IMG/VR virus record: IMGVR_UViG_3300012987_000001
Location: 1-64,000 of that record
From: a virus
Reading direction: 5' to 3' (one strand)
Length of the DNA stretch: 64,000 nt
Every line of letters starts with the position of its first letter. Position 1 is the first letter of the stretch. The notes beneath the pieces were generated by a model that did not search any database, had not been told where the DNA came from, and saw only the letters and a list, made by a program, of their open reading frames with translations. This document shows positions 7,275 through 54,795 of the stretch, piece after piece. The position numbers were made by a program, and so were the translations under genes.

Positions 7275-7874
7275 CTACTTCGTCCGCTCGTTGAAGCGCT
7301 CGCGGAGTCTGTCCTGCGAATCCTGCAAACGGTCGACCTTGGTCTCTAGCCCGTCTAGCCGGTGGACGCTCGCGGCGTTCTGCGTGGTGAGCTCAGCGCG
7401 GAGAGCGGCCATCTCGTCGCGTACGGCTTTCAGCGCGGGCGTGGGGTCTTCCGCTGCCGGCTTATTGATCCAGGCAGTCACGGCGCCGCCAACGCACGCG
7501 ATCAGCGCGAGAGCGACGGCGCTGGGCATCGACATCGACCACTTGCCCTTGCCGAGCACGACCTGACCAGTGGGCGGTGGCTCTGAGCGCGAGCCAATCA
7601 CCGGCCGCATTGACTCCGGCGGAGGCGGGTTAACGGGCTCTGGCCGGCGTTCTGCGGGCGGGGCGAGGCCGAGTAGGGTCGGCTCGTCCCGATGGCTCTC
7701 CAAGCGCGGCCGTGGCCCCTCGTAGCCCTTGGGCGGGGCCATGCGCATCGGGGCCGGCGGAGGCTCGGTGGGGGCCTCCTGGCTCGGGATGGGGGTGTGC
7801 AGCCCGCGGGCCGCGTTGACCTCGGTGACATCCGGCGGCCAGCCGCGCTTGGGTGGGTCCTTGGGCGGCGGCAT
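7275..7874 (-). CDS. Pro-rich membrane protein with a central TM helix and a C-terminal coiled coil (lysis-associated, spanin-like?)
   Basis: Track ORF. It has a ~110-aa Pro-rich N-terminus, then MPSAVALALIACVGGAVTAWI, then heptad-like AALRAELTTQ...LQDSQDRLRERF. It lies in the lysis cassette. Confidence 0.6.
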   Translation of the reverse strand: MPPPKDPPKRGWPPDVTEVNAARGLHTPIPSQEAPTEPPPAPMRMAPPKGYEGPRPRLESHRDEPTLLGLAPPAERRPEPVNPPPPESMRPVIGSRSEPPPTGQVVLGKGKWSMSMPSAVALALIACVGGAVTAWINKPAAEDPTPALKAVRDEMAALRAELTTQNAASVHRLDGLETKVDRLQDSQDRLRERFNERTK

Positions 7875-7877
7875 GGC

Positions 7878-8405
7878 CTACTTGACCGCGATCGATACGA
7901 CCGACATGGCCAGCGAAATCAGTGAAATCCCAAGCGGGACCCAAATGGCAATGGTCTCGATTTTTGCCATGCGCGCGGCGAGCGCGCGGGTGTCGTCGCG
8001 TAGCTCGCGCACGACCTCGACGGCCATCATTGCCGAGTCTGCCGAGCTGCGGCAGTGGTCCTTGATGGCTCGCACGTCGGAGAAATGCTGCCGCATTTCG
8101 GCCACGTCCAGGCACAGCTGGTCCATTGGAGAGAGGATATGCTTGACCGGGGTCTCCTCGCTCCGTCGGTGATCCTGCTCGTTGGGCGCGATCGGCGGCG
8201 CCCGATCCGTGTCGCCAACGTCAGATGGTACGTGCGGAGCGCGCGGGATTCTCGGGATCGAGGCGAACGGATCCACGGGATCGGTCACCGGTTTCGCGAC
8301 GGCGATCTTGGGGCGCGAGTCCCATGCCTCTGGCGGAGTCACCGCGCGCGGGTAGTCGCTCTCGTGTGGATCGAACCGGCTGGGCTCTTTCGGCTTGTCG
8401 GTCAC
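7878..8405 (-). CDS. Pro-rich tail-anchored membrane protein (C-terminal TM), lysis-associated
   Basis: Track ORF with a GTGA overlap with the endolysin stop. The C-terminus is IAIWVPLGISLISLAMSVVSIAVK. Confidence 0.6.
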   Translation of the reverse strand: MTDKPKEPSRFDPHESDYPRAVTPPEAWDSRPKIAVAKPVTDPVDPFASIPRIPRAPHVPSDVGDTDRAPPIAPNEQDHRRSEETPVKHILSPMDQLCLDVAEMRQHFSDVRAIKDHCRSSADSAMMAVEVVRELRDDTRALAARMAKIETIAIWVPLGISLISLAMSVVSIAVK

Positions 8406-9217
8406 GTGTTGGGCTCCGTGGGTTCGTCGTCGTCTCGGTGGGTGAGGTCGAGGCCGGCGTAGAGATTGGCCGTCAGGTCGTCCCAGCGCGCATCATTCCG
8501 TGCCTGCTCTTCAAGTCGCATCACGACGAGCGCAGGCTGGGTCGCTGGCGCCTCCGGAGCGATCGGCGCAATGGTGTCGGTCGGATTCGTTTTCGCGAGC
8601 GGCAGTGGACCGTCAGCTACGTTCTGATCGAGCAGCATGGGCTTGATGGCGCCGCCGGGGCCGCCCGGGTTGTAGGGGCCAACCGTGCGCTGCCAGATGG
8701 CGTAGGGCTTGTTCCCCGGCGTCGCCGGCTTCTCGGCGTTCACGTAGTGCGCCACCCATAATGGCCTATCCAAGATCCAGGCGGGCTTGCCGAGCCGGCC
8801 GAAATCTCGTTGAGTGATGTAGACCATCGCTTCGCCGAACTCGGTCAACAGGCCATCGACGAAGGCGCTGATGCTCGGCTCCCACGACGGGTCGAGCTTC
8901 GCGGTCAGGTCGTCCTCGACGTCGATCGCGGGCGCGATGTCACCCATCCCGACGCCACATGTGATGGCTTGAGCGCAGAAGGCGTCGAGCTGCTCACCGA
9001 CTGGCTGCGTCGATCTGAAAAAATGATACAGCCCGACCTGGAGGCGAGCGGAGCGCGCGTTTTTGATGTGGGCTGGCGCGCTCGCGTCCTTCGATGTGCC
9101 ATAGGTCGCGCGCACGATCGCGAACTTGCTGGCCTGCGCGATCGTCGCCCACGACACGCCAGCGGGGGCAGTCGTATTCTGGAACTTCGAGACATCGACG
9201 CCGTAGATGCGGGACAT
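8402..9217 (-). CDS. Endolysin, GH25-type muramidase with a C-terminal extension
   Basis: M34 of ORF 8402..9316. The sequence IYGVDVSKFQ...FAIVRATYGT...GLYHFF fits the recalled GH25 signature (DVS...YHF). The start overlaps the upstream stop (TGATG). Confidence 0.85.
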   Translation of the reverse strand: MSRIYGVDVSKFQNTTAPAGVSWATIAQASKFAIVRATYGTSKDASAPAHIKNARSARLQVGLYHFFRSTQPVGEQLDAFCAQAITCGVGMGDIAPAIDVEDDLTAKLDPSWEPSISAFVDGLLTEFGEAMVYITQRDFGRLGKPAWILDRPLWVAHYVNAEKPATPGNKPYAIWQRTVGPYNPGGPGGAIKPMLLDQNVADGPLPLAKTNPTDTIAPIAPEAPATQPALVVMRLEEQARNDARWDDLTANLYAGLDLTHRDDDEPTEPNT

Positions 9218-9408
9218 CAGCGCGCCTTCCCTTTCGGCTTCTCGATCGGCTTCGGCCAAAACGGGTTCTGGTTTCGAGCCGCCCCAACCAGACCAAGCGA
9301 GATCCCTTCGTCGCACATCGAGAACGCGATCAGCTCGGCGTCCGCTCGGAGCTCAGGCGGGAATTTCGCGATCTTGGCGCGCGCTTCGGCGGAGGAGATG
9401 GGTTTCAC
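9217..9408 (-). CDS. Hypothetical small protein (63 aa) upstream of the endolysin
   Basis: The GTG start makes a GTGA overlap with the upstream stop, and the stop overlaps the endolysin ATG. It is the C-terminal part of track ORF 9217..9615. Confidence 0.5.
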   Translation of the reverse strand: MKPISSAEARAKIAKFPPELRADAELIAFSMCDEGISLGLVGAARNQNPFWPKPIEKPKGKAR

Positions 9409-9872
9409 TCGCTGTCGCCCTTCAGCAACGCCTCGAAAGCCTCTCGAGTCAGATGCATATCGCAGAGCCAGAAGCGCTTGAATTGACCCATCTTTGCGAA
9501 CGACGCCGTGAACTCTCCGCAGCCGGTGGCCGCGCAACGGTGCAGCGTCGGCGCTGAGTCCTTCGATCGCGCCTCGAGCTCGAGTTCGTTGTCGAGTTGG
9601 TATCGACAATGACACTCGTGGGCTTCGGCGGCCGTAGCGTGACCATCCGTGTGGTACTTCGCCTGGTGAGCGCGCAGCGCTTCGGTGTCGGCGTCCATCT
9701 GTTTGACGAAGCCCTCTCCGAATTGGCGCACGAGGCGCTCTCTGGCTTCACCGCTGGCCGGCCCCCTCCAGCCGGCGCAGTAGCCGATCGGGTATGGGCT
9801 CGAGCTTCCGGTGCCCGACGTGTAGTCCCATCGGCCATCGGTTCGCTGTAGTGGTCGCAAATAGGTGGTCAT
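9405..9872 (-). CDS. Conserved-looking phage hypothetical protein (155 aa; MTTYLRP..., YHTDGH, Cys/His-rich)
   Basis: Track ORF 9405..9890, with ATG at 9872 preferred (alternative TTG at 9890). Confidence 0.65.
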   Translation of the reverse strand: MTTYLRPLQRTDGRWDYTSGTGSSSPYPIGYCAGWRGPASGEARERLVRQFGEGFVKQMDADTEALRAHQAKYHTDGHATAAEAHECHCRYQLDNELELEARSKDSAPTLHRCAATGCGEFTASFAKMGQFKRFWLCDMHLTREAFEALLKGDSE

Positions 9873-9891
9873 GATCTTTTTTCTCGGCAAC

Positions 9892-10092
9892 TCAGCCCGA
9901 TACGGGCCGACAATACTCAGCCGCGGCCGCTACCCGCTCAGCTCGGTGACGACCCGACCGCCGACCGGAGAGATGGGTCCGCCGCAGGCCTTTTTTCAGC
10001 TTTTTCCACGCCCCCTGCATAGCCATGATCCGAATCGCCACGCCGATACCGACGGCGATCGCCAGCTCGATGGCTTGCTCGGCGCGGCTCAC
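9892..10092 (-). CDS. Holin candidate (66 aa, one TM helix, strongly basic C-terminus)
   Basis: Track ORF with a GTGA overlap upstream. The helix AIELAIAVGIGVAIRIMAM is followed by KKLKKGLRR... Confidence 0.45.
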   Translation of the reverse strand: MSRAEQAIELAIAVGIGVAIRIMAMQGAWKKLKKGLRRTHLSGRRSGRHRAERVAAAAEYCRPVSG

Positions 10093-10268
10093 TTCTGCTC
10101 CTTGAATGGCACACGGATCGCCTCTTTCGCGGCGATGATCGCGGCTTGGCGCTCGGCCTCAGCGACTGGATCGTCGTGCCGCAAGAGCGCCGTTACGATC
10201 TTGGTGATGGCAGGCACGATCTCGGGGAACTGACCCAGCAGCGCAATGAGCTCTTTCACTGGCCACAT
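10089..10268 (-). CDS. Hypothetical small protein (59 aa)
   Basis: M15 of ORF 10089..10310 (MWPVKELIALLG...). Confidence 0.5.
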   Translation of the reverse strand: MWPVKELIALLGQFPEIVPAITKIVTALLRHDDPVAEAERQAAIIAAKEAIRVPFKEQK

Positions 10269-10681
10269 GCCTTCTCGATCGCGGTATCGCAATCGGCGAG
10301 CGTTTCGCACTCAGCCTCGGACTTGCCAGCGTTGGCGCATTGCTGAGACTTGACGACGCAGGAAGCGACAACACCAGCGAGCCGGGCCTCGTCACACGGC
10401 GGCTTCGGGTTCGAGCAAGCTGAGGCATGGAGAGATGCGGCCAACAGAAGCACAGCCGCACCCGCCCCCGGGAACATCGGCGGCAGCTTCGGTTCGTCGC
10501 CCTTGGGCTTCGGTGTCTCGCGCACATTCACCGAGAATTTCGCGTTTGCCGCATAGCTGGCCAACCGGGCGAAAAACTGCGCATATTTCGCAGGCAGCGG
10601 AAGGTGCGCGAGTACCGCGCTGATCACGCCAATGGCGCCGAGCGCGGAGGTGACGTCGGTGAGGATTTGTTCGATGGGCAT
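10256..10681 (-). CDS. Membrane protein with an N-terminal TM helix and an internal lipoprotein-like signal followed by a Cys-rich tail (spanin-like?)
   Basis: M77 of ORF 10256..10909 (MPIEQIL...). The helix is ALGAIGVISAVLAHL. The in-frame internal segment is MFPGAGAAVLLLAASLHASAC followed by SNPKPPC... Confidence 0.55.
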   Translation of the reverse strand: MPIEQILTDVTSALGAIGVISAVLAHLPLPAKYAQFFARLASYAANAKFSVNVRETPKPKGDEPKLPPMFPGAGAAVLLLAASLHASACSNPKPPCDEARLAGVVASCVVKSQQCANAGKSEAECETLADCDTAIEKACGQ

Positions 10682-10776
10682 GGTTTTTGGTTGGGTGAGA
10701 CTCGAGACGCAGCAGGGCAGCGTCCACCCGCCGGGAGGGGGACCACCAAGTGAACGCCGCTCTGCTACGTCTTGGG

Positions 10777-11115
10777 TTAGGTATTGTCGCAGTGCAGCCG
10801 AACCGTCTTGTCGCTGCCGAGTTCCGGAGAGCCGGATAGCGTGTACCGACAGCGAAGCCGGTAGGTGGTGCCCGGCGTTCCGCCAGTCGCGAGGAACGAC
10901 ACGCCCCAAAGCGTGTCGCTGATCTGACCGGGAATCACCGAACTGATAACGAGCGAATCGCCGACCAACGCAGTGTCGTTGTCGTCAACAGCGGTCACGG
11001 TTGCTAGGGCCAGCGAGTCGCCGCTGTCTACGGGGATCTCGATCGTGTAATCCATCGATTGCCCAGATGGGTCGTGGACCCAAGGGCACAACGGGAAGAG
11101 CACTCTTACGCTCAC
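10777..11115 (-). CDS. Small beta-rich virion protein, fibre-tail adaptor-like
   Basis: Track ORF. The GTG at 11115 follows GGAAGG (alternative ATG at 11055). The pattern DYTIEIP..GDSL....V......L.......I....V.F...GG.PG..Y.L.C resembles the recalled fibre-adaptor family. Confidence 0.55.
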   Translation of the reverse strand: MSVRVLFPLCPWVHDPSGQSMDYTIEIPVDSGDSLALATVTAVDDNDTALVGDSLVISSVIPGQISDTLWGVSFLATGGTPGTTYRLRCRYTLSGSPELGSDKTVRLHCDNT

Positions 11116-11118
11116 AGC

Positions 11119-13305
11119 TCAGGCCTTCCAGCGCCGAGCGGCGCGCGTTGCAGATGTGGTGCGGATGCGCCGCTCGAATGGCGATCGGACGAAGCCACTC
11201 GTGCAGATTCCGCTCAACGAGCCGACTCCACCGATCAAGCAGGCGATCGATGCCAGCGCGGATCCGGTTCCGGTGATGGTCCCGACGCCGACGCAGGTGG
11301 CTATCAATGCGCCAGCGGGCGCAGTTGTGCCGGACAGTGTTCCGACGCCCGACATCGAGCAGGCTGCCGAAAGAACCCGCGCTCCGGTTCCCGTCAGGGC
11401 TCCCGCGCCGGCACTAGTTACGTTCAGTGCGCCGGGGGCGGTCAGTGTCGCGTTGACGCCACCAATGCCGGCAGCCGATGCGCTAACTGATGCGAGAGCG
11501 CTCCACGTCCCGGAAATCCCGCCAACACCCGCACAGGTACCGGTCGCGCTCCCCTGGACCATCGATCCGGACAGGGCGCCGACACCGGCCGCGATACCCG
11601 CGAGAGCGCCGAGCGCAGAGCTTGTGACCGACAGCGCGCCGGCTCCCGGGATCGTCGACGCAAGAGCGCCGCCCGCCGAAACGGTTGCCGCAGTTCCTCC
11701 GGCGCCAGCTGCGGTTCCCGCGAGTGTCCCGCGAGCGCTCGCGGTGCAGCTGAGCGCACCAATGCCGGCGCACGAGGCCGAAGCCGCACCAGGCGCCGTG
11801 AGCGTTCCGGAAAGGCCGCCAGCGCCCGCACAGGTTGCGTTGTTGCCTGGCTGAAGAACGGTCCCGGACAGGGCGCCAGCGCCCGCACACGAACACGCCA
11901 GCGCGCCTGGGGCCGTTGCTGCGCCAGAGAATGCACCAACGCCGGCTATCGTCGCAGCGGCCGCGCCTTGGGCCTGCGCAGTGCCCGCTAGGGCGCCCGT
12001 CCCTGCCGTCGTGCACGCTAGCGTGCCGGGTGCCGAAATGATGCCTGTCTGAGCACCGACGCCAGCGCACGCAGAGGCGAGCGCGCCAGGAGCGCTCGCC
12101 GTGCCCGCCAGCGCCCCGACTCCGGCGCAAGATGCCGCCAACGCCCCGGGCGCCGTAGCAGTCCCAGAAAGCGCCCCCGCGCCGGCAGCTGTGCCACCGA
12201 GGGCACCGAGCCCGCTCGGCGTTCCTGTCTCTGCCCCAGCGCCCGCCAATGTGCCGGCAAGCGCGCCGCCGGCTGAGGGTATCGCGGAGACGCTGCCCAT
12301 GCCCGCGCAAGTAGAGGAAATCGGTCCCGCCGAGACCGGTGAGGTAATCAGCAGGCCGGAGCCGAGCGTGGGGCGGGGTGGGCCCGGGAAATGTGTGCCG
12401 AGCGCCGCGGCATAAGCCATCGGCTGCGGTTGCGGCATGGGGGCCGCGATCGCTATGGAGATCGATCCAGAAAGCGCCCCGATGCTTGCGAGCGTTGCGG
12501 ATATCGGTGCTGCTGAGATGGTAGCAGCGAGCAGTCCGACACCGAGACGCGCTATTCCAGGCAACGGAGCGCGCGGCGGAAAGCCCTTGGCGCGTTGCTG
12601 TACAGAGCCAAGCATTCCCGGATCGGGAATGCTCGCCCCGGCACTGGCTCCTAGCTCATCAAATACCGCAAACGCGACCAAGTGCTCGACGTTGGCGCTT
12701 GCGGTGAACGTCGCCGCTTGCGAACCGATCGCGCTGATCGCCTTCCACTCAGCGCGACCACCGATCCCGATCCCGAACGTGCCGCCGGTAGCAAGCGAAG
12801 TGAACCCAGTTCCCGCTGCGGGCGCGCCGGTGAACGTCGAGAACGCGAAGCCAAAAACACCAGCGGGCTGCTTGGTATTGCTCGCCGCAGTCGCGACAAC
12901 GCCATCCGCGCCGGTGCCCGGAGTCGCACGAGAAACTGGGCCAGTGCCCGCATCAAACGATGCGACCGCGGCGCCCGATATTTTGATGTACGCGATGCAC
13001 TTGTACACAGTCGACGCGCTGAACGTCGCCGTGATCGTTGTGCTGCCAGAGGCACAATTCTGCTTGTAGAAAGTGGTGAGGTCTTGGCCGTTGGCATCGG
13101 AGACCTTCGTGCCGAGCGCGGTGTAGTTGCCCGCGTTTACGTTGTCCGCGACCGTGATCGTTGGCGCGTTGGAGTTGTCGCTCCAGACGCCCACGTAGAG
13201 CGTGTCGCCGGCCGCAACCGTGACCGTGATCGCTTGCGTCGTGCCGGCTGTACCTGGGCCGGTCGAGCCGTCGTCCGCAAATGCGGCTGTTGCGGAGAGG
13301 GCCAT
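11119..13305 (-). CDS. Tail fibre / receptor-binding protein: lectin-like N-terminal domain, then ~18.5 x 20-aa Gly/Ala/Cys repeats, then a basic C-terminal tail
   Basis: Track ORF (728 aa) placed in the fibre cluster. The repeat consensus is AG(A/V)GALSGTxxAPGALAxxC. Confidence 0.75.
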   Translation of the reverse strand: MALSATAAFADDGSTGPGTAGTTQAITVTVAAGDTLYVGVWSDNSNAPTITVADNVNAGNYTALGTKVSDANGQDLTTFYKQNCASGSTTITATFSASTVYKCIAYIKISGAAVASFDAGTGPVSRATPGTGADGVVATAASNTKQPAGVFGFAFSTFTGAPAAGTGFTSLATGGTFGIGIGGRAEWKAISAIGSQAATFTASANVEHLVAFAVFDELGASAGASIPDPGMLGSVQQRAKGFPPRAPLPGIARLGVGLLAATISAAPISATLASIGALSGSISIAIAAPMPQPQPMAYAAALGTHFPGPPRPTLGSGLLITSPVSAGPISSTCAGMGSVSAIPSAGGALAGTLAGAGAETGTPSGLGALGGTAAGAGALSGTATAPGALAASCAGVGALAGTASAPGALASACAGVGAQTGIISAPGTLACTTAGTGALAGTAQAQGAAAATIAGVGAFSGAATAPGALACSCAGAGALSGTVLQPGNNATCAGAGGLSGTLTAPGAASASCAGIGALSCTASARGTLAGTAAGAGGTAATVSAGGALASTIPGAGALSVTSSALGALAGIAAGVGALSGSMVQGSATGTCAGVGGISGTWSALASVSASAAGIGGVNATLTAPGALNVTSAGAGALTGTGARVLSAACSMSGVGTLSGTTAPAGALIATCVGVGTITGTGSALASIACLIGGVGSLSGICTSGFVRSPFERRIRTTSATRAARRWKA
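11194..12306 (-). repeat. Intragenic tandem repeat, ~60-nt (20-aa) unit, 18 full copies plus 1 partial
   Basis: Counted by hand over aa 334-704: 16 units of 20 aa, two of 19 aa and one of 13 aa. Cys recurs at or near the last position of many units. Confidence 0.85.
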
Positions 13306-14697
13306 TTAGTCAAGCACCAAAACGACGTCGCTCGTGCCATCCACGCGCGCGGACGGCTGGGTGAAATTCTGCGTTCCCGTGTTCGTGAGCGAGGCGGAAA
13401 TCAGGGTAAAGGTGCCCGCGGTCGGATCGAACCAGCGTGCGCGTTTGGCGCTTGAAAACTGCGACATCGCTACCGTGATCGTTGCGGCGGCCCCGCTTGG
13501 AAAATAGGCCGCCAGGCACGCCGCTGACGCGCGCGCGCTCACGTAACTCGAAGACGTGTACGTGCCGCGCCCCGCGGTGACGAAGGTGTTGCTCGAGTCC
13601 GGCGCCATCGTGGCCCACGGCAGCGCGGACCATAGTGCCCAGGTGTACCCGTGCTCGGTCGTGCCGGTAGTGCCCGTGACGTTGGCCGCGTAAACCCATC
13701 CCGTCGGACTCGTTCCGCCCCGTGCGTAGCACAGAGAGGCGCTCCCCTCGCACATGCCCGAGTGCTGTTTGGCGCGCAGCTCGAGCGTGGTGCTTTGCGC
13801 TGGGTCTCCCTCGTAGGACTCGTCAAGGAGCAGCGTCGGACGAGTCGGCGAGTGGCCGTATCCCGTGCGGATCCGGGTGTAGACGAGCGCGCCGGGGTTG
13901 TAGCCGTAGTGCGACCAGAGAAGCTGCGAGTAGCCTGCGAACGTGGCCTGATCGAACGCCAGATCACCGCCGTTGCCGCTGCCCGTGTCGCCGTCCCAGT
14001 GGGCTACCCAGAGCTTGTTCGGATCGACCGAGATCACGCCGTCGACCACGTGCTGAAGTCGACTCTCGAGCGTCGAAGCAACGGTGGGCCGCGCGTCTCC
14101 ACCCATGCCGTAGATCACGTTCGTGCAGCCGAGTAGGAGATTCCCGACGTACTGCCCGTACGTCGTCATGTGGGCGTCGGTGTCCGCCTGCATGACATCG
14201 CCCCAGCCTTCGCTGGTACCGCCCGCCACTGCGTTGTATCCGAGGTACGCGACCTGGACGATCGCCAGCATCCCGATCGATTGCAGGTACTGGACGCACG
14301 CCAGCGCGTGAGCGAAGTAGGTCGCGTTTGGCGTCGAGAAGTTGCCCGCGCTCGTGAACGGCGCGACCGTGCTGCCGTTGTTCCAGTTGGGGGCGGCGAA
14401 GTGGTTCCCGCTCGTGCTCGGGAATCTCAGCTGATCGTTGCTGATCAGGGAGACATGCAGGGCGTTGAACCCGCGCGCCTTCTGCGCGTCAGCAAACGAA
14501 ACGAAGTCCGCGTAGCTGATCGCTTGGATGTAGTCCCATGCGGCGGCCGCTACGTTCAGCAGCAGCGGCGCCCCGCCGGCCGTGGTCAGGGCTCGCGAAT
14601 CCACGGACATGGCGATCGGGAATGGCGACGCGGGCGGAGTGGTAGAGAGCGTGCCCGCGCCCAGTCTCGGCGGAACCAACGCTGAGCGCGGCGGCAT
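13306..14697 (-). CDS. Glycoside-hydrolase-like tail protein (DUF4038/GH140-like catalytic region plus a C-terminal collagen-binding-like beta domain)
   Basis: Track ORF (463 aa). It has a TIM-barrel-like pattern and the C-terminal motif RWFDPTAGTF, recalled from the PF12904-type domain. The stop abuts the next start (TAAATG). Confidence 0.55.
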   Translation of the reverse strand: MPPRSALVPPRLGAGTLSTTPPASPFPIAMSVDSRALTTAGGAPLLLNVAAAAWDYIQAISYADFVSFADAQKARGFNALHVSLISNDQLRFPSTSGNHFAAPNWNNGSTVAPFTSAGNFSTPNATYFAHALACVQYLQSIGMLAIVQVAYLGYNAVAGGTSEGWGDVMQADTDAHMTTYGQYVGNLLLGCTNVIYGMGGDARPTVASTLESRLQHVVDGVISVDPNKLWVAHWDGDTGSGNGGDLAFDQATFAGYSQLLWSHYGYNPGALVYTRIRTGYGHSPTRPTLLLDESYEGDPAQSTTLELRAKQHSGMCEGSASLCYARGGTSPTGWVYAANVTGTTGTTEHGYTWALWSALPWATMAPDSSNTFVTAGRGTYTSSSYVSARASAACLAAYFPSGAAATITVAMSQFSSAKRARWFDPTAGTFTLISASLTNTGTQNFTQPSARVDGTSDVVLVLD

Positions 14698-21425: not shown

Positions 21426-22703
21426 TCAGATCTCCCCTCCGGGCGCGCCCAGGATACCGCTACGAAACAGCTGACCTAGCCCCGTGGCATACACTCGGCC
21501 GTTGATTGATCGCAGGCACGACGTCACAAGCGAGCCCTTGATAAAATAGTGATAGTTCCAGCTGGACCCCTCGTTGAGACTGTATGCAATGCCGCTGAAT
21601 GTGCTGTAAGCGCTGGTGTAGCTCGTCGGTTTCACTAGTGCTGGCCCCACAGCCAGCAGGGTGCCGCGGCCGTTCAGGAATCCATTTGCTGCGGTCAACC
21701 CAGAGCGCACAAGCGTCCAAGATGCGCCGTCAACGGATGACACGAGTCCGCCGCCATCGTCCCAGTAAAAGAACTTACCGTGATGCTGGGAATACACGAC
21801 ATTGCAATGGGCAGCAGAGCCGCCGCTCGCTAGGCATAGCACCCACGTCGCACCGCCGTTGGTTGATCGATAGCAGGCGCAGCTACCGGAACCCGCATTA
21901 GTCCTTCCGGCGATCATGATCACCGAGCCATTGTCAGTGAACTCTACCTCGTCGTCGTCAAATGACAGACCTCCAGGCGTCGGGATAGTTCCTGTCGTTG
22001 GGGTTGCCAATAAGCTAGCGATCGAGTTGGCACGAATATAGAAGACAGAAGAGTTGGTGATCACCGCGTGATAGCCAGCCGCAGCACCAACCGGCACGTA
22101 GTGCACGGCCTGCACCTTGGGCGGCCCAGAAAGCGTGATCGTCGAAGCCGACCAGGTGTTGGTGCTAGTAGTCGAGTACGCAAGTACGTTGTTGTTGTTG
22201 AATAGTATCAACTCGCCGGGCGCTCCGGGGGCGGAGAACACCGGAGACACGAAAGAGGCGATCGAGTCGAGCCGCGGCGGCGACGGCTCTATGTATGATC
22301 CGTCGGTCGCGTGCGCTATGCGCGCCTTATTGGAGGCGCCGGCATCGCGACCTACCACTATCACCTCGCGCTGCGTGTCGTCCGTCAGACCAAACCCGCG
22401 TGCGATGCGCATGCCTACGACGCTTTCATAGGCATCAGTGCCAACGATCGGAATGGGTTGATTCGCCCACTGCGTAAGCGCTGCGTGCGCGAGCACCTGC
22501 GCGTGTAGCGCGAGCGAGTCGCCGATGGTTCCGAGTTTGTAATTTTCAACCTGTGCAGGCGGCTGCTGGTTCGGGGCAGCGCCCGCTGCCAGGTACGGAG
22601 AACCGGGGTTGATGCGCGTCAGCCCGCCGCTCCATGGGAGAGCGCCCGCGGGATAGGTTGGGTCAGTCGCCCATGGAGCGGGGTTGATTTTGATAGGATT
22701 CAT
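21426..22703 (-). CDS. Tail fibre with BNR/Asp-box beta-propeller-like repeats
   Basis: Track ORF (425 aa). Asp-box-like motifs are STNGGATW, SVDGASW and SLNEGSSW. The N-terminus (PWATDPTYPAG...) is typical of fibre attachment regions. Confidence 0.65.
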   Translation of the reverse strand: MNPIKINPAPWATDPTYPAGALPWSGGLTRINPGSPYLAAGAAPNQQPPAQVENYKLGTIGDSLALHAQVLAHAALTQWANQPIPIVGTDAYESVVGMRIARGFGLTDDTQREVIVVGRDAGASNKARIAHATDGSYIEPSPPRLDSIASFVSPVFSAPGAPGELILFNNNNVLAYSTTSTNTWSASTITLSGPPKVQAVHYVPVGAAAGYHAVITNSSVFYIRANSIASLLATPTTGTIPTPGGLSFDDDEVEFTDNGSVIMIAGRTNAGSGSCACYRSTNGGATWVLCLASGGSAAHCNVVYSQHHGKFFYWDDGGGLVSSVDGASWTLVRSGLTAANGFLNGRGTLLAVGPALVKPTSYTSAYSTFSGIAYSLNEGSSWNYHYFIKGSLVTSCLRSINGRVYATGLGQLFRSGILGAPGGEI

Positions 22704-23311: not shown

Positions 23312-24538
23312 TCAGTGGTTGACGACGATTCGAACGCTGTCGAAGGTGGCGATTTGGCGAATGCCAATGGCTACATCGGAGCTCGACACTGGTGAGGCCG
23401 AAGTGCCGAACGTCAACACGGTCACCTTTGCGCCGAGACCCTGCGTCGCAAGCGTGATGTCGTAGGCGGTGACATCGGTGCCCGTCGCATACGGTTCGAG
23501 GATGACATCCCGGTTGCCTTGGTCGTCTGTAACGACGACGCCATCGGATAGGTAGCGCGCGACTGTCTGCGCGAACAGCGAGTCGCCGACATAGCCAGGG
23601 CGAGCCGCGACCGTCATCGTGATCCAGATGGGCACCACGGTCGCGCGGCTGAAGTTCACGAGTTGTATCGCGCCCGCCTTGTCGACGGCATTGCCGCTTA
23701 CGCTGCCGTAGGCGCGGATCCCCGCCGGCTTGCTGTCCCAGATCGTCTGGGCAATTTGGTCGTTCGTGATCGCGCCGGACGGGTCCCACACGACCATTTC
23801 AAACGAGTGCGGCGGGAGGCCGTTGCCATCAATCGCGTCGGTAACGTTGTTGAACGAGGCGACGCTAGCTCCCGGAATGTCCTCGAGCAGAACAACAAGC
23901 TTCGCGCGGATTGCATCGATAGTGCTCGAGCCCGCGCGCGTTAGCTCGCGCTGGCGCGTGAGGCGCAGCTGCGCGTCGCTGGCGACGTTGGCGCCGGGGT
24001 GAGCATCACCAGGATTGTTGACGGCGGCCCAACCAACGACAGGGGTTGCAATGATTGTCAGCTGATCATGTGGCGCTTGAATGGGCCCAGTGCTCTCAGC
24101 CTCGAAAAGCACATTCGGGTTTGCGCCGTCGATCGTCGCAGTGAAATTCTCGGCGGGAGTAAACTTCACATCTGGTTTGCCGCTCACGCTTGCGAAGTGC
24201 GTGCCCGCAAGCAGAACGGTCCCAAGGCTCGCTGTTACCGTAACCAGCACCGTGCTCTTGGTTGCTGCGGCTCGTGGTGTGCCGGTCAACTTTGCCAGCA
24301 TGGTCAGAAGCGTGTCCTCGGCCTTGTCCGGGTCGAAGCCGCTGTAGCAAGCAGCGAGTGCTTCCCAGCCTTGAGCCAGGTAGTTCGCAAAGATGCCGTT
24401 GTTCTGTCCGATCGGCGACTCGGCAGACACATCGAGCGCGGGCGAGATCCCGGCGAGCTGGTCGGCTTCGATCAGGTCGAGCAGGTCTCGAACGCTGGGC
24501 GCGACAAAGCCCTCTGGGGTGAGGCCAAAGGTGGGCAT
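23312..24538 (-). CDS. Baseplate J-like protein (Mu gp47 / P2 gpJ family)
   Basis: M28 of ORF 23312..24619. Its size, position and sequence pattern are typical of Baseplate_J. Confidence 0.75.
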   Translation of the reverse strand: MPTFGLTPEGFVAPSVRDLLDLIEADQLAGISPALDVSAESPIGQNNGIFANYLAQGWEALAACYSGFDPDKAEDTLLTMLAKLTGTPRAAATKSTVLVTVTASLGTVLLAGTHFASVSGKPDVKFTPAENFTATIDGANPNVLFEAESTGPIQAPHDQLTIIATPVVGWAAVNNPGDAHPGANVASDAQLRLTRQRELTRAGSSTIDAIRAKLVVLLEDIPGASVASFNNVTDAIDGNGLPPHSFEMVVWDPSGAITNDQIAQTIWDSKPAGIRAYGSVSGNAVDKAGAIQLVNFSRATVVPIWITMTVAARPGYVGDSLFAQTVARYLSDGVVVTDDQGNRDVILEPYATGTDVTAYDITLATQGLGAKVTVLTFGTSASPVSSSDVAIGIRQIATFDSVRIVVNH

Positions 24539-24578
24539 TCGTTTTTGACTCGGCGTCGAGCGCCGTTTCTTCGGTGGG

Positions 24579-25232
24579 CTAGTTGCAGATGTACTTGCAA
24601 TTAGAAGGGCAGACCCCACCAGGGGAGTCGTAGCTCTTCACTGTCGCCGTAGCGCCGACCTTGAGCAGGATCGTCGACGACTTGCTTGTGCTCGTCCAAG
24701 AAGCGCAGGTTGAACAGTGGTCGCGGGATACGATGCTGGAGGCTGAACACGTGGCGGCATCCGTTTGCTGCTCGTAGTCACCGGTCACCGCCAGACACGT
24801 ATTCACGGGCACGACGTATTCCGCGAACCCCGAGCACACCGCAGGCCCTGACCCGGCCTGCGCCGCGCCTGCCGATCCGCCCTGAGGCTCGCCGGCTGTG
24901 CCGCCCAAGCCGCCCTGCGCTCGACCACCAGCGCCTGCCAGCGCGCCGCCCGAACCAGCGTGACCCGCTCCGCCGCCGCTGCCAGCAACCGCAGGAGCCA
25001 CCGCGCGCGCCTGCTCGCCCGCGAGGCCAGCGCTGCCGGCTTCGCCCGCGGACGCCCCGCCGGTGGCCTGTAGCGCTCCGGCAAAGCCCGCCGAACCTCC
25101 ACCAGCCTGCGCTCCGCCAGACGCCGCTGCGACCCCGGCAGAGCCGCCCTGGTTGCCTTGCAGCGGCTCCTGAACCGCCGCCGACCCTGAGCACCCGAAC
25201 GCGAACACGACCAACAGACCCAGCCCTCGCAT
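24579..25232 (-). CDS. Secreted lipoprotein: lipobox signal, ~120-aa Gly/Ala/Ser-rich linker, 8-Cys C-terminal domain (moron inside the baseplate module)
   Basis: Track ORF. The N-terminus MRGLGLLVVFAFGCSG is a signal with Cys at +1. GGSAG-type low complexity follows, then a CxxxxxxxC-rich domain. It has short gaps on both sides instead of coupling. Confidence 0.75.
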   Translation of the reverse strand: MRGLGLLVVFAFGCSGSAAVQEPLQGNQGGSAGVAAASGGAQAGGGSAGFAGALQATGGASAGEAGSAGLAGEQARAVAPAVAGSGGGAGHAGSGGALAGAGGRAQGGLGGTAGEPQGGSAGAAQAGSGPAVCSGFAEYVVPVNTCLAVTGDYEQQTDAATCSASSIVSRDHCSTCASWTSTSKSSTILLKVGATATVKSYDSPGGVCPSNCKYICN

Positions 25233-25256
25233 CCTACCAAGGTACGAGGGCGCCGA

Positions 25257-25637
25257 TTAGGCCGCAAGGTCGAGAATGAAATCCTGGTCTTCGGGGGCGA
25301 CAGACACCACCCCGCCGGTCACCATGGCCTGAAACCGAAACGTCAACTGCCGAGCCGATTCGTCGAAGGAAAGCGAGTAGCTGGCTAGGGACAGCACGCC
25401 CGGGCAGCCCAGGATCACTTTTTTGAAAAGCGACCGAACCACGTCCAGATTGGGGTTCTTGGTGAAGACGTCGCGGTAGTAGGGGATGCCCTGTCGCTGG
25501 TCTAGGAACCACTCGGCGAGGAAAAACTTGAAGCGGGCGGAGAGCTTTTGGCGGATGGCGTCTGGGCCTTCGACCAGCTTCACTGTTCCGCCGAAGAGGG
25601 CTAGATCTCCGGCTGGTATCACGCGAAGGACTGCCAC
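25257..25637 (-). CDS. Baseplate protein, gp25/gpW-like
   Basis: Track ORF 25257..25682. The GTG at 25637 overlaps the upstream TAG by 1 nt. The motif is DAIRQKLSARFKFFLAEWFLDQRQGIPYY. Confidence 0.65.
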   Translation of the reverse strand: MAVLRVIPAGDLALFGGTVKLVEGPDAIRQKLSARFKFFLAEWFLDQRQGIPYYRDVFTKNPNLDVVRSLFKKVILGCPGVLSLASYSLSFDESARQLTFRFQAMVTGGVVSVAPEDQDFILDLAA

Positions 25638-26299
25638 TATTCGGCCTTGAGTTTGGTTGCGGCTACGGTCGGTCCGGGCCATGACGAGAGCGCGCCGTTG
25701 AGTGCGCTCATTCCGCCGAGCCCGCCCGCTCCGGATTCGGTTCCCGCTGCAGTCGTGATTGCCGACTTGAGCTGCGCGAGCGCTTGATCGACTTTCTGTG
25801 CGAGCGCAACGAGCGTCGCAGCCGGTCCACCCACACGGAAAACGCCGCCGCCTGGGACGCCGAACACCGCCTCTCCGCTCGCGGGCGCGTCAGACAGCTT
25901 GGCCTTGTCCGGTGCCGCTCCCGGCAGCGCGAAGGGATAGGAGAGCGAACCGCGTCGCAGATCGCCTGGGTCGGATACCTCACCGGTCGCCCGCCACTGC
26001 GCGATCGATGCCTCGTTGAACACGAGCCACACGTGGTCGCCGGCTGCGAGCGGAAGGTGCAGGTAGTAGCCGCCGCCGCGGGGCCACGCCACGGGGACAT
26101 TGGGGATTACCGGCAGATCCTCATGAATCGTCTCGCCCTCGGCATCCGGGATCGTGCCGCGCAAACAAGGCACAACGTCCGCGACCTGCTTAGCCGCGTC
26201 GTAGCTCTTCACGCGCCCAGGCATGCACGTGTGGAGCTCGCCCAGGATCGCCTGGCGATGGTCGTCGAGGACCTCTGCGAGTGTGGGCTCGAGCGGCAT
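25637..26299 (-). CDS. Baseplate central spike protein (Gp138_N / gpV-like)
   Basis: Track ORF. The sequence HTCMPGRVKSYD...VVP...LPVIPNVPVAWPRGGG...AGDHVWLVFNEASI fits the recalled Gp138 N-terminal pattern. Confidence 0.7.
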   Translation of the reverse strand: MPLEPTLAEVLDDHRQAILGELHTCMPGRVKSYDAAKQVADVVPCLRGTIPDAEGETIHEDLPVIPNVPVAWPRGGGYYLHLPLAAGDHVWLVFNEASIAQWRATGEVSDPGDLRRGSLSYPFALPGAAPDKAKLSDAPASGEAVFGVPGGGVFRVGGPAATLVALAQKVDQALAQLKSAITTAAGTESGAGGLGGMSALNGALSSWPGPTVAATKLKAE

Positions 26300-52895: not shown

Positions 52896-53509
52896 GCTCC
52901 ACCTCCCACCCCAGCCACGAACCCGGTGGGGTGGCCGCGCAGTCCGTCCGAAGCTGCTTCACTGAGCGCGATGGCGAAAGCTTCAGCTTCTGGATCGGGG
53001 AAGTTGAGAGCGGCGAAGGGTCCGAAGACTTCCAGCGCCTTGTGGTCGTAGGCGCGCGCGGCCTCTACCGGATCGGTGAAGACTCCAAGGTAGAGCTGGC
53101 GCCGCTTCCCGTTGGCTTTGATCTCGCCGCCGCAGATCGAGGCCTGCCATTTGGCGGCCGCTTTGTTCCACGTAACCCCCTTGTAGCCGCCGAGCTTCTG
53201 GCGCTTGGAGCTGGTGACGTTGGTCGCGTTCTCGCGGTGGGTGGCGAAGCGGAGATTGCTCCGACGGTTGTCGAGCCCGTCACCGTTCTCGCGGTCGACC
53301 CATTGGCTCGATTCCACGCCAAGAATGAAGTGGTGCAGCGCCTGCTTCGAGCGTCGCCCGGGCAGATCGCGCTGGGCGTAGCAGCGGCCCGGATCGGACG
53401 GCTTGCGCTTTACGTGCCACTTGAGCGCCAGCACGCGTTCGGCGTCGGCAGCATCGACTAGGGCGAACAGGCCGGTGCGCCCGAGGCGGACCTGGATCGG
53501 CCCGGTCAC
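52892..53509 (-). CDS. HNH_3-like plus AP2 DNA-binding domain protein (homing-endonuclease-like; first HNH His replaced by Arg)
   Basis: Track ORF with a GTGA overlap with the integrase stop. The motifs are WVDRENGDGLDNRRSNLRFATHRENATN and YKGVTWNKAAAKWQASI...YLGVFTDPVEAARAYD. Confidence 0.7.
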   Translation of the reverse strand: MTGPIQVRLGRTGLFALVDAADAERVLALKWHVKRKPSDPGRCYAQRDLPGRRSKQALHHFILGVESSQWVDRENGDGLDNRRSNLRFATHRENATNVTSSKRQKLGGYKGVTWNKAAAKWQASICGGEIKANGKRRQLYLGVFTDPVEAARAYDHKALEVFGPFAALNFPDPEAEAFAIALSEAASDGLRGHPTGFVAGVGGGA

Positions 53510-54795
53510 TTGACGCCCCCGATCCGCTGGCCTTCGATCGCGACCAGTTCGAGCACCCTGGCGCGGGCCAGCCGGTCGGTGCCCATCCGGTAGGCGAGCC
53601 GTGTGGCCTCCAAAACATTGGCCGCCTGCTCGCTGGATTCACCCGTGGAACGCTTGTGGAATTCCTCTACCGCAAGCCCCGAGAACCCTTGCAAGTTCCG
53701 AGGATTCGTAAACCGCAGGTCTCGAGTTCGAATCTCGAAGTCGGCTCTGGAGTTACGCGACTCCGTAACCTCGCCGTGGAATCCCGTGCCGGCGCCCGCT
53801 TTCTTGAGGGTCTCGGCGAGGAAGTGCGCGTAGCGCTCAGTGACTTTCACGCTCGAGTGACCGAGCATTTGGCAAACCTCGTCGAGCGACCACTTGCGGC
53901 CCCACCAGCCGGCAAGCAGTGATGTCGCGCACGTGTGGCGCAGGTCGTACCAACGAACCGGACGCTTGATGCCGGCCGCCTTGAGCCAGCGTGACCAACC
54001 GCTCGGGTGACTGTCGTGCCAGCGAGCCTCATTCGTTCGCGGGGAAGGGAAGGCGAGGAGGCATTTGCGCTTTTGGCGATCGACCGCTTCCCGGGCGGCT
54101 TCGAAGCCCACGCCGAACAGTGGGACCCGGCGGATCTTCTTGTTCTTCGTCTTGCGGAAAATGACCTCGCGCCGATCTAGGTCTACGTCGGACAGCAGCA
54201 GGCGCCACTGCTCGGAATTGCGGGCGCCGCAGCCGAGCGCGAACGCAGCCGTATGCCACTCCTCGACCGGGACCGCGTTGAGAAGCGAGAGTTGTTCGTC
54301 CGGATAGAGGATGGTCCAGGACTCTTCTTCCTGGGCTTCTTTGCGGCGACCTACCCGGACTGTGCTCGCGACGTTCTCGGTCACCAGTTCGCGGTCGAGT
54401 GCCTCGGTGAGCGAGACGCGCAGGAGCGACAACGCGTTCTTGCGCGTTTGGTGATCCAGGGCGAGGGATGTCTCGAGCCACTCCAGCCAATCTAGAACGT
54501 GGACGCGACGAAGATCGCGAAGCGGCGCAGGGCCGAGGGCGCTGCCGTCGATGTAGAGCTTCCAGCGGTTCTCATCGTTCGACCAATCGGATACTTTCAG
54601 ACGGCGGCGCGTTAGGAACGCGGTGCCGAACTCGGACAGCGAAAGCCCGCCCTTTTTGGGTAGCGGCCGCGTGAGTGCGAGCTCTGCCTCTTCTTTGGTC
54701 GGGAAGGTGCCGAGCGGCACGTACCGCTTGGTAAGCGGATCCTTTTTGCGCGCGCGCCACCGACCAGACGGAAGTTCTTCAAGTGCTCCGCTCAT
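53506..54795 (-). CDS. int: Tyrosine integrase with a ~107-aa extension after the catalytic Tyr
   Basis: Track ORF (429 aa). The N-terminal arm-type segment is GRWRARKKDP..LGTFPTKEEAE. The catalytic region is WYDLRHTCAT...LGHSSVKVTERYAHF. Confidence 0.9.
   Translation of the reverse strand: MSGALEELPSGRWRARKKDPLTKRYVPLGTFPTKEEAELALTRPLPKKGGLSLSEFGTAFLTRRRLKVSDWSNDENRWKLYIDGSALGPAPLRDLRRVHVLDWLEWLETSLALDHQTRKNALSLLRVSLTEALDRELVTENVASTVRVGRRKEAQEEESWTILYPDEQLSLLNAVPVEEWHTAAFALGCGARNSEQWRLLLSDVDLDRREVIFRKTKNKKIRRVPLFGVGFEAAREAVDRQKRKCLLAFPSPRTNEARWHDSHPSGWSRWLKAAGIKRPVRWYDLRHTCATSLLAGWWGRKWSLDEVCQMLGHSSVKVTERYAHFLAETLKKAGAGTGFHGEVTESRNSRADFEIRTRDLRFTNPRNLQGFSGLAVEEFHKRSTGESSEQAANVLEATRLAYRMGTDRLARARVLELVAIEGQRIGGVK
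53705..53746 (+). other. attP-core candidate: 3' half of a tRNA-Thr(CGU)-like sequence, antisense inside the int ORF
   Basis: TTCGTAA / ACCGC / AGGTC / TCGAG-TTCGAAT-CTCGA / AGTCGGC / T corresponds to anticodon loop, stem 3' strand, variable loop, a perfect T-arm, acceptor 3' strand and discriminator. The 5' acceptor partner is absent. Coordinates were calibrated on int codons. Confidence 0.6.

Follow-up and report, generated by a model that had tools for sequence, protein, structure and literature searches.

In the baseplate module of an uncultured temperate myovirus, represented by a stretch of 64,000 nucleotides (nt) of IMG/VR record IMGVR_UViG_3300012987_000001 (here the window, to which all coordinates refer unless a relative is named), a lipoprotein gene lies between the gene for a gp25-like protein and that for Baseplate_J (hereafter J). 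The explanation we favor, to which we assign a probability of only about 0.4, is that the gene was inserted once at this junction and encodes an accessory lipoprotein that is exported, anchored in the host envelope, absent from the virion and used to block the entry of further phages. An original prediction, made from the sequence of the window, had described an open reading frame (ORF) of 217 amino acids (aa) at this position, with a lipoprotein signal, a low-complexity linker of ~120 aa and a C-terminal globular domain with 8 Cys residues, and this description proved accurate in every part. More than that, the protein belongs to a very small, previously undescribed family with a distinctive build, in which a tether is combined with a disulfide domain.

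Architecture of the lipoprotein and its family

The coding sequence is complete and was located, from the ORF list and the sequence, at 24579..25232 on the minus strand, with an ATG start, 217 aa and a TAG stop. Sequence comparison indicates that it is a real gene: the ORF is conserved in eight lineages with far less nonsynonymous than synonymous divergence (pN << pS), and when the C-terminal domain was compared pairwise, pN (0.17 to 0.36) fell far below pS (0.52 to 0.81) in each of the 15 pairs; synonymous sites are near saturation at these values, so that the ratios are rough and their direction is nonetheless unambiguous. The same domain displays the bias toward GC at third codon positions (GC3 of 0.76 versus GC1 of 0.45) that characterizes the genes of this phage. 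These three observations rule out a spurious ORF or a high-GC artifact. The GC content of the ORF is about 0.70, compared with 0.63 for the window, and the excess stems from the Gly and Ala codons of the linker, the C-terminal domain itself having a GC content of about 0.60. Antisense and alternative-frame ORFs over the linker (e.g., 24686-25279 on the plus strand) were also considered and rejected as real genes, since the lipoprotein frame is the conserved one, with pN << pS.

The predicted signal peptide with its lipobox, MRGLGLLVVFAFG-C14 with Ser at position +2, is encoded at 25191..25232 (minus strand). Lipoboxes were called throughout with a rule-based regular expression, following the PROSITE-type (PS51257-type) rule, which asks for a positively charged n-region, an uncharged h-region and a lipobox of the form [LVI..][ASTVI..][GAS]-C with the Cys within approximately the first 35 residues. 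The N-terminus, MRGLGLLVVFAFGC followed by SG, obeys this rule with Arg2, an uncharged h-region of 10 residues, and the sequence A-F-G-C ending in Cys14, so that its segments read MR-GLGLLVVFAF-G-C14. When we scanned every ORF and start codon of the window with the strict form of the rule, this ORF was the sole match among coding-like frames. Downstream of the Cys, residues 15 to 132 (24837..25190, minus strand) form a Gly/Ala/Ser-rich tether of 118 aa, predicted to be disordered from its composition (G 33%, A 29%, S 9%, and a single aromatic residue), its length and a predicted local distance difference test (pLDDT) score below 50. We looked for tandem repeats in the linker DNA and found none, which rules out slipped-strand variation of the linker. 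The tether is followed by the Cys-rich globular domain, comprising the last 85 residues (aa 133 to 217; 24582..24836, minus strand) with 8 Cys, and the mature protein would amount to 204 aa, or about 20 kDa.

Relatives of this protein are few. A word-indexed homology search with the C-terminal domain gave no match, an exhaustive phmmer (HMMER) search of 1.84 billion cluster representatives recovered only 6 family clusters, and scans of IMG/VR and metagenomes added 2 further lineages and nothing beyond; a metagenome scan for the domain likewise returned only already-known loci. No bacterial-genome homologue outside this phage locus was found among the 1.84e9 representatives. The family thereby assembled consists of nine sequences from eight phage lineages, which share 32-66% identity outside the lipobox; a near-identical copy of the window protein, P0001, differs from it at 5 positions, all of them in the linker. 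All nine have a lipobox whose Cys occupies position 12-19 and precedes Ser (Ala in one sequence), a Gly/Ala/Ser-rich, net-acidic and poorly conserved linker of 107-153 aa, and a Cys-rich domain of 80-85 aa. Six Cys positions are kept family-wide; in the two divergent members, the CxxC pair is reduced to a single Cys and the C-terminal Cys is missing. This pattern fits a disulfide-bonded extracytoplasmic domain, with one extra disulfide in the 8-Cys members compared with the divergent ones.

AlphaFold (AF2) models the C-terminal domain as a seven-strand, all-beta structure with a pLDDT of about 80-88 (for the domain modeled alone, pLDDT 77 and predicted template modeling score 0.66), and in the full-length model residues 7-130 fall below a pLDDT of 50 and show no secondary structure. 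A Foldseek search with the domain gave no significant match (best E value of 0.26 against the PDB, entries to April 2026, and of 0.12 against BFVD), and a profile search of PDB sequences reached an E value of 1.1 at best, against unrelated proteins. Neither Pfam, PHROG, NCBIfam nor PADLOC contains a match for the lipoprotein; with no Pfam or PHROG match, it has no counterpart in known baseplates, as had been claimed for those of the Mu/P2 type.

Predicted export, anchoring and host type

An N-terminus of this kind directs a protein into the Sec/Lgt/LspA(/Lnt) pathway, by which it is exported, acylated at the Cys and cleaved; in a diderm host, a protein with Ser at +2 would then be sorted by Lol to the outer membrane. 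Under these rules, the lipoprotein would leave the cytoplasm, receive a lipid at Cys14 and become anchored in the envelope of the host, most likely in the outer membrane of a Gram-negative (diderm) host, because the residue at +2 is Ser and never Asp or Lys. Its beta domain is probably stabilized by 3-4 disulfides, and such a domain would need an oxidizing compartment. A flexible tether of ~110-150 residues might hold this small domain up to tens of nanometers from the membrane; we estimate its contour length at about 40 nm and its span as a random coil at roughly 8 nm.

The combination of a Sec/lipobox signal with 3-4 disulfides is incompatible with tail assembly in the cytoplasm, from which we infer that the lipoprotein is not part of the virion and that a virion role is very unlikely. 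This bears on the alternative of a virion-associated adhesin, which had been offered together with the exclusion hypothesis. A baseplate adhesin or decoration whose hydrophobic N-terminus is not used for export would suit a gene that is fixed in the subclade and surrounded by baseplate genes of the same operon and strand. However, the lipobox is retained in nine of nine sequences although the remainder of the protein is only 32-66% identical, the 6-8 conserved Cys imply that the protein folds in an oxidizing environment and not in the cytoplasm, and the gene is absent from relatives with an otherwise identical baseplate gene order and inverted in one lineage (L003, below). Of all the explanations weighed here, we give this one the least credence.

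As to the host, the E217/Pam3-type families of the baseplate, together with the labels of the metagenome-assembled genomes (MAGs) that carry distant prophage-like loci, suggest a diderm. A genome scan with an alignment of the hub protein detected only distant loci of this type (21-38% identity), in MAGs labeled delta proteobacterium, Polyangiaceae, Opitutales and Gammaproteobacteria, and no prophage was found when GTDB species representatives were scanned with an alignment of J.

A lineage-specific insertion at the gp25/J junction

The lipoprotein gene is found between the gp25-like gene and J in all eight lineages (the window, L001 to L005, L007 and L008), which belong to one uncultured myovirus clade. 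In seven loci from more distant relatives (L012-L018), whose J proteins are 27-43% identical, gp25 ends 0-53 nt before J and no lipoprotein gene is present. This distribution identifies the gene as a lineage-specific insertion that has become fixed in a single subclade, as expected from the proposal that it had been inserted into the baseplate module, and, as in a moron, extra DNA stands at an otherwise conserved junction. In the explanation we favor, a single insertion took place in the ancestor of this temperate myovirus subclade, with the gene kept ever since. The short noncoding gaps that had been reported on both sides measure exactly 24 nt (25233-25256) and 40 nt (24539-24578), and the flanking baseplate genes do follow closely on one another, overlapping or abutting with junctions of -4 to +3 nt.

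The upstream gap, from the gp25 stop to the lipoprotein ATG (25233..25256, minus strand), turned out to be a conserved feature when relatives were compared. The spacer is 24 nt long in five of the seven forward-oriented loci, namely the window, L001 (1919-1942), L002 (4767-4790), and L007 and L008 (7977-8000 in both); L005 has a spacer of 22-25 nt and L004 one of 48 nt. Moreover, GTAnCTTGGnAGG directly abutting ATGCGAGGG is conserved in the window, L001, L002 and L008 and partially so in L005 and L007. Side by side with this we note that GTAnCTTGGnAGG resembles a Shine-Dalgarno sequence (GGnAGG) at zero spacing to the ATG, an odd arrangement for a ribosome-binding site, and that a TTGCnG motif lies 17 nt upstream in the 3' end of gp25; it is tempting to speculate that both together form a weak promoter giving rise to a leaderless mRNA. 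In the eighth lineage, L003, the lipoprotein gene is inverted. Its stop, on the opposite strand, lies 1 nt beyond that of gp25, and about 60 nt separate its start from that of J, with the two genes pointing away from each other. Transcription of this copy must therefore be separate from that of the baseplate operon.

Downstream of the lipoprotein gene, the window is the compact case. Its interval to the J start (24539..24578) is only 40 nt long, whereas in most relatives this interval spans 359-882 nt and holds an ORF on the reverse strand. Such a second, reverse-strand gene is present between the lipoprotein gene and J in six other lineages, and its type varies: it encodes a membrane-anchored PF12869 (tRNA_anti-like OB) protein with a transmembrane (TM) segment in L001 (2593-3102), L002 (5474-6010) and L005 (8690-9154), a 273-aa lipoprotein in L007 (8612-9433), a 105-aa signal-anchored protein in L008 (8646-8963) and a 67-aa ORF in L004 (3016-3219). 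The stop of the accessory gene overlaps the lipoprotein stop in L001, L002 and L005 (CTAG), leaving no terminator between the convergent genes. From these variable neighbors we conclude that the junction collects envelope-targeted accessory genes, among which the forward lipoprotein gene is the constant element. The 40-nt gap of the window contains, on the plus strand, a hairpin with a T-run (24551-24575), a type of element that is not above chance (3 found versus 2.8 expected); it may be a remnant of the reverse-strand gene that relatives carry there. Other insertions in the same baseplate module were seen in a more distant relative from an Opitutales MAG (L022, 7786-10608), where an integrase-like ORF lies between spike and gp25, an HNH-like ORF between gp25 and J, and an unrelated reverse-strand lipoprotein (MRLILAAALLTTSC followed by A, with a Pro/Asp/Ala linker and a Cys-rich C-terminus) just upstream of gp25.

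The pairing with a variable small gene, which adjoins the lipoprotein gene in most relatives, raises the question of a toxin and its immunity protein. Lipoprotein toxins of the SitA type have been described (PMC5562445), and an effector of this kind, passed on by outer-membrane exchange, would share the layout of lipobox, linker and C-terminal domain, with the variable reverse-strand neighbor providing immunity; distant prophage relatives also occur in MAGs labeled Polyangiaceae and 'delta proteobacterium'. Yet the window has no candidate immunity neighbor, the C-terminal domain is conserved rather than polymorphic, and a disulfide-rich beta domain of 85 aa is unlike nucleases that act in the cytoplasm. 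We thus regard a SitA-type role as highly improbable.

Possible functions in the infected cell

We next consider what such a lipoprotein might do. In the infected or lysogenic cell, its job would most likely be to act on the envelope and stop further phage entry, either at a conserved secondary receptor, which it would block, or at the tip of the incoming tail, which it would intercept; alternatively, the benefit might be that progeny are not wasted on lysing cells and debris. An exclusion function is plausible by analogy with Llp, Cor, Rtp45, Ltp and HK97 gp15. The idea of a superinfection-exclusion moron, as originally put forward, thus survives in part: the type of protein (a lipoprotein predicted to be exported), the insertion and the accessory slot speak for it, while no promoter or terminator belonging to the gene was found and the gene is fixed instead of sporadic.

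Several observations weigh against an entry-blocking function. First, neither homology nor a similar fold links the protein to a known exclusion protein in Pfam, PHROG, NCBIfam, PADLOC, the PDB or BFVD. Second, the gene lies on the same strand as the baseplate genes behind an upstream gap that, at 24 nt, is too short to hold a promoter; no sigma-70-like promoter was detected in a scan of the window, with a consensus that may not be the host's, no terminator-like site was found downstream on the coding strand in the window, and a scan of L003 for both kinds of element returned nothing above chance. Judged by this arrangement, the gene in the window looks cotranscribed with the late genes rather than expressed from the prophage, and would then not form an independent transcription unit like that of a classic moron; the inverted copy in L003, as noted, must be transcribed apart from the baseplate genes. 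Third, fixation across the subclade is more typical of a lytic-cycle gene than of a dispensable moron. Fourth, the lipoprotein domain is kept at 52-65% identity across lineages, compared with 64-84% for core baseplate proteins, while the distal fiber genes have been replaced: the first fiber-like ORF is only 24-32% identical, and more distal tail proteins have no match. A mask specific for the fiber receptor would be expected to be exchanged along with the fibers, which argues against this form of the receptor masking proposed at the outset. If the protein does block entry, its retention despite the fiber swap suggests that the target is conserved, as a secondary receptor or the tip of the incoming tail would be.

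A related explanation, less probable than the favored one and on the whole unlikely, accommodates several of these points. Here, the lipoprotein would be a clade-fixed self-exclusion device, that is, a tethered periplasmic decoy made together with the baseplate. In a cell that is already infected, this decoy would bind a conserved part of the tail tip of phages of its own clade (spike, tape measure or J) during passage of the tip through the envelope, and linkage to the baseplate genes would keep blocker and target coevolving. This would explain the long tether, as a means of reaching into the periplasm and not to an outer-membrane receptor, as well as the retention despite the fiber swap, the evolutionary rate intermediate between core baseplate and fibers, and the conserved 24-nt junction with gp25.

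Expression with the late genes could also mean that the protein serves the release of progeny. An outer-membrane lipoprotein coexpressed with the tail genes might disrupt or remodel the envelope at lysis in the manner of an o-spanin or of another accessory that breaks the outer membrane; the late-operon strand, the conserved 24-nt spacing and the absence of a terminator agree with this, as do the predicted outer-membrane topology, a tether that could span the periplasm and the fixation in the subclade. Furthermore, in L001, L002 and L005 the product of the adjacent gene is an inner-membrane protein of type II that has a domain in the periplasm. Nevertheless, the lipoprotein gene lies about 15 kb from the GH25 endolysin gene (8402-9316) and its cluster of TM ORFs, the window offers no adjacent i-spanin-like partner, the partner in the reverse slot varies and the gene is inverted in L003, and the folded, disulfide-rich domain is unlike known o-spanins. 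A spanin-like role in lysis is therefore less likely than interference with entry, and we rank it slightly below the self-exclusion device, as a decidedly unlikely explanation.

The strongest competitor, although itself rather unlikely, is a lysogenic-conversion or host-fitness factor: a surface or periplasmic lipoprotein that alters the envelope, for instance in adhesion, nutrient or glycan binding, or kin and surface recognition, without blocking phages. The phage is temperate, and the evidence for export and for an accessory slot fits this possibility equally well. Long Gly-rich tethers are common in surface-displayed lipoproteins, and the domain, a small beta-sandwich fold, bears a weak and nonsignificant resemblance to CUB, carbohydrate-binding module (CBM) and cupin-like binding domains (E ≥ 0.12). 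Set against this, all of these structural matches are insignificant, no promoter belonging to the gene itself is detectable in the window, and, unlike many conversion genes (PMC3594210), the lipoprotein lacks a homologue in bacterial genomes outside the phage locus.

Comparison with known systems

Given the analogy with known exclusion proteins, we compared the window protein with each of them. Llp of T5, Cor of T1/phi80 and Rtp45 of Rtp are, like it, phage-encoded lipoproteins with a lipobox. However, they measure about 6-8 kDa, have essentially no tether and contain one disulfide, compared with about 20 kDa for the mature window protein (about three times the size of the Llp/Cor type), a tether of 118 aa and a predicted 3-4 disulfides. 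Their genes lie directly beside the receptor-binding protein (RBP) gene of siphoviruses, whereas the gene described here lies between gp25 and J of a myovirus. Llp, Cor and Rtp45 sit directly on the outer-membrane receptor (PMC9586334, PMC12685063), while the tether would reach well beyond the membrane plane. The window protein thus shows none of the homology, small size, RBP-gene adjacency and covariation that unite this group, and the comparison with Llp and Cor that had been drawn finds no support in a relationship of sequence or fold; the protein is, moreover, larger, tethered and not encoded beside a fiber or RBP gene.

A match in design is Ltp of the Streptococcus thermophilus phage TP-J34, which joins a globular domain to a lipid anchor through a Ser-rich spacer and blocks DNA injection but not adsorption (PMC3952083). 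The same three-part layout is present here, as a resemblance in design only, with no homology. Ltp functions in a Gram-positive host and has an effector of helical repeats, and its gene belongs to the lysogeny module and is active in the prophage; the window protein has neither the repeat domain nor the lysogeny-module position, its gene being located in the baseplate operon. HK97, a temperate phage, carries in its tail operon the exclusion moron gp15, whose product is an envelope protein that prevents entry and leaves the surface receptor unmasked (PMC3594210). Like the gene described here, it is an extra gene in a tail-morphogenesis operon; but the gp15 protein is small and located in the inner membrane, and its gene has a promoter and a terminator of its own as well as bacterial (YebO) homologues, whereas we found no such elements or homologues in the present case.

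A last group, the o-spanins (e.g., Rz1 of lambda), resembles the window protein in comprising late phage outer-membrane lipoproteins with disulfide-forming Cys. These proteins are short, Pro-rich and largely unstructured and function by fusing membranes, their genes being paired with that of an i-spanin in the lysis cassette. The window protein differs from them in its folded beta domain and in the distance of its gene from the endolysin; partnership with an i-spanin is not apparent, there being no TM or coiled-coil neighbor, and the endolysin and TM ORFs are found at 7.2-10.9 kb.

Genomic neighborhood and phage

The upstream neighbor is a gp25-like sheath initiator/baseplate wedge gene (25257..25637, minus strand), identified by phrog_120 at 6e-19 and by PF10934 in its orthologues. 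Its true start is probably the GTG at 25637 and not the ATG of the longest ORF at 25682: the GTG overlaps the spike stop by 1 nt (TAGTG) and yields 126 aa, as in all relatives, while the ATG would make the gene overlap the spike gene by 46 nt. The downstream neighbor is the J gene (23312..24538, minus strand; PF04865, phrog_6), whose product is 66-78% identical over its full length in the subclade relatives. Further neighbors encode a spike N-terminal-domain protein, an E217_gp41-type hub, a Pam3_gp18-type plug and a DUF2612 wedge protein, and the first fiber-like ORF (21426-22703) is separated from the lipoprotein gene by J and the DUF2612 wedge gene.

Overall, the window derives from a myovirus of 63% GC with genes for an integrase, portal, major capsid protein, terminase, DnaB and a GH25 endolysin. 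The phage is considered temperate because of the integrase (53506-54795), which lies about 29 kb from the lipoprotein gene. A blastn search with the baseplate region found no match among cultured phages, and tblastn searches with the portal and J proteins returned only matches of at most about 32% identity, which leaves us with no cultured relative and no host clue from this side. No tRNA genes were found, and no tRNA fragment or other meaningful Rfam match near the integrase, so that attP offers no host clue either.

In the distal tail, the window (11119-14697, minus strand) encodes glycan-active proteins, with an apiosidase-like glycoside hydrolase carrying a collagen-binding-type domain at 13306-14697 and a 728-aa repeat protein rich in Ala, Gly, Ser and Thr at 11119-13305; the distal tail of relatives (L007, 14057-16615) instead encodes a GDSL lipase and a Pel9A-like beta-helix. 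These genes suggest a surface polysaccharide as the primary receptor, along with swapping from lineage to lineage. The probable lysis region (7275-10909, minus strand) surrounds the GH25 endolysin gene and includes three single-TM ORFs, at 9892-10092, at 7878-8405 (with a C-terminal TM segment) and at 7275-7874 (with a TM segment and a coiled coil), along with a small Cys-rich ORF at about 10256-10474 that has a lipobox-like ASAC motif (MFPGAGAAVLLLAASLHASAC followed by SNPKPPC). Neither the TM ORFs nor the small Cys-rich ORF had family matches.

Implications

Phage lipoproteins that act on the host envelope are a known theme; for those that block infection, the known examples are chiefly the small coliphage proteins Llp, Cor and Rtp45 and the Gram-positive Ltp. 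What appears new here is an unrelated family, its build from a tether and a disulfide domain, and its fixation in a baseplate operon. Practical value is limited for now, the phage clade being uncultured. The gp25/J junction is a hotspot for envelope-targeted genes in this phage group and should be useful for finding more of them. If the protein does block entry, it would represent a new structural solution and possibly a new target, in the form of a conserved entry step instead of the fiber receptor.

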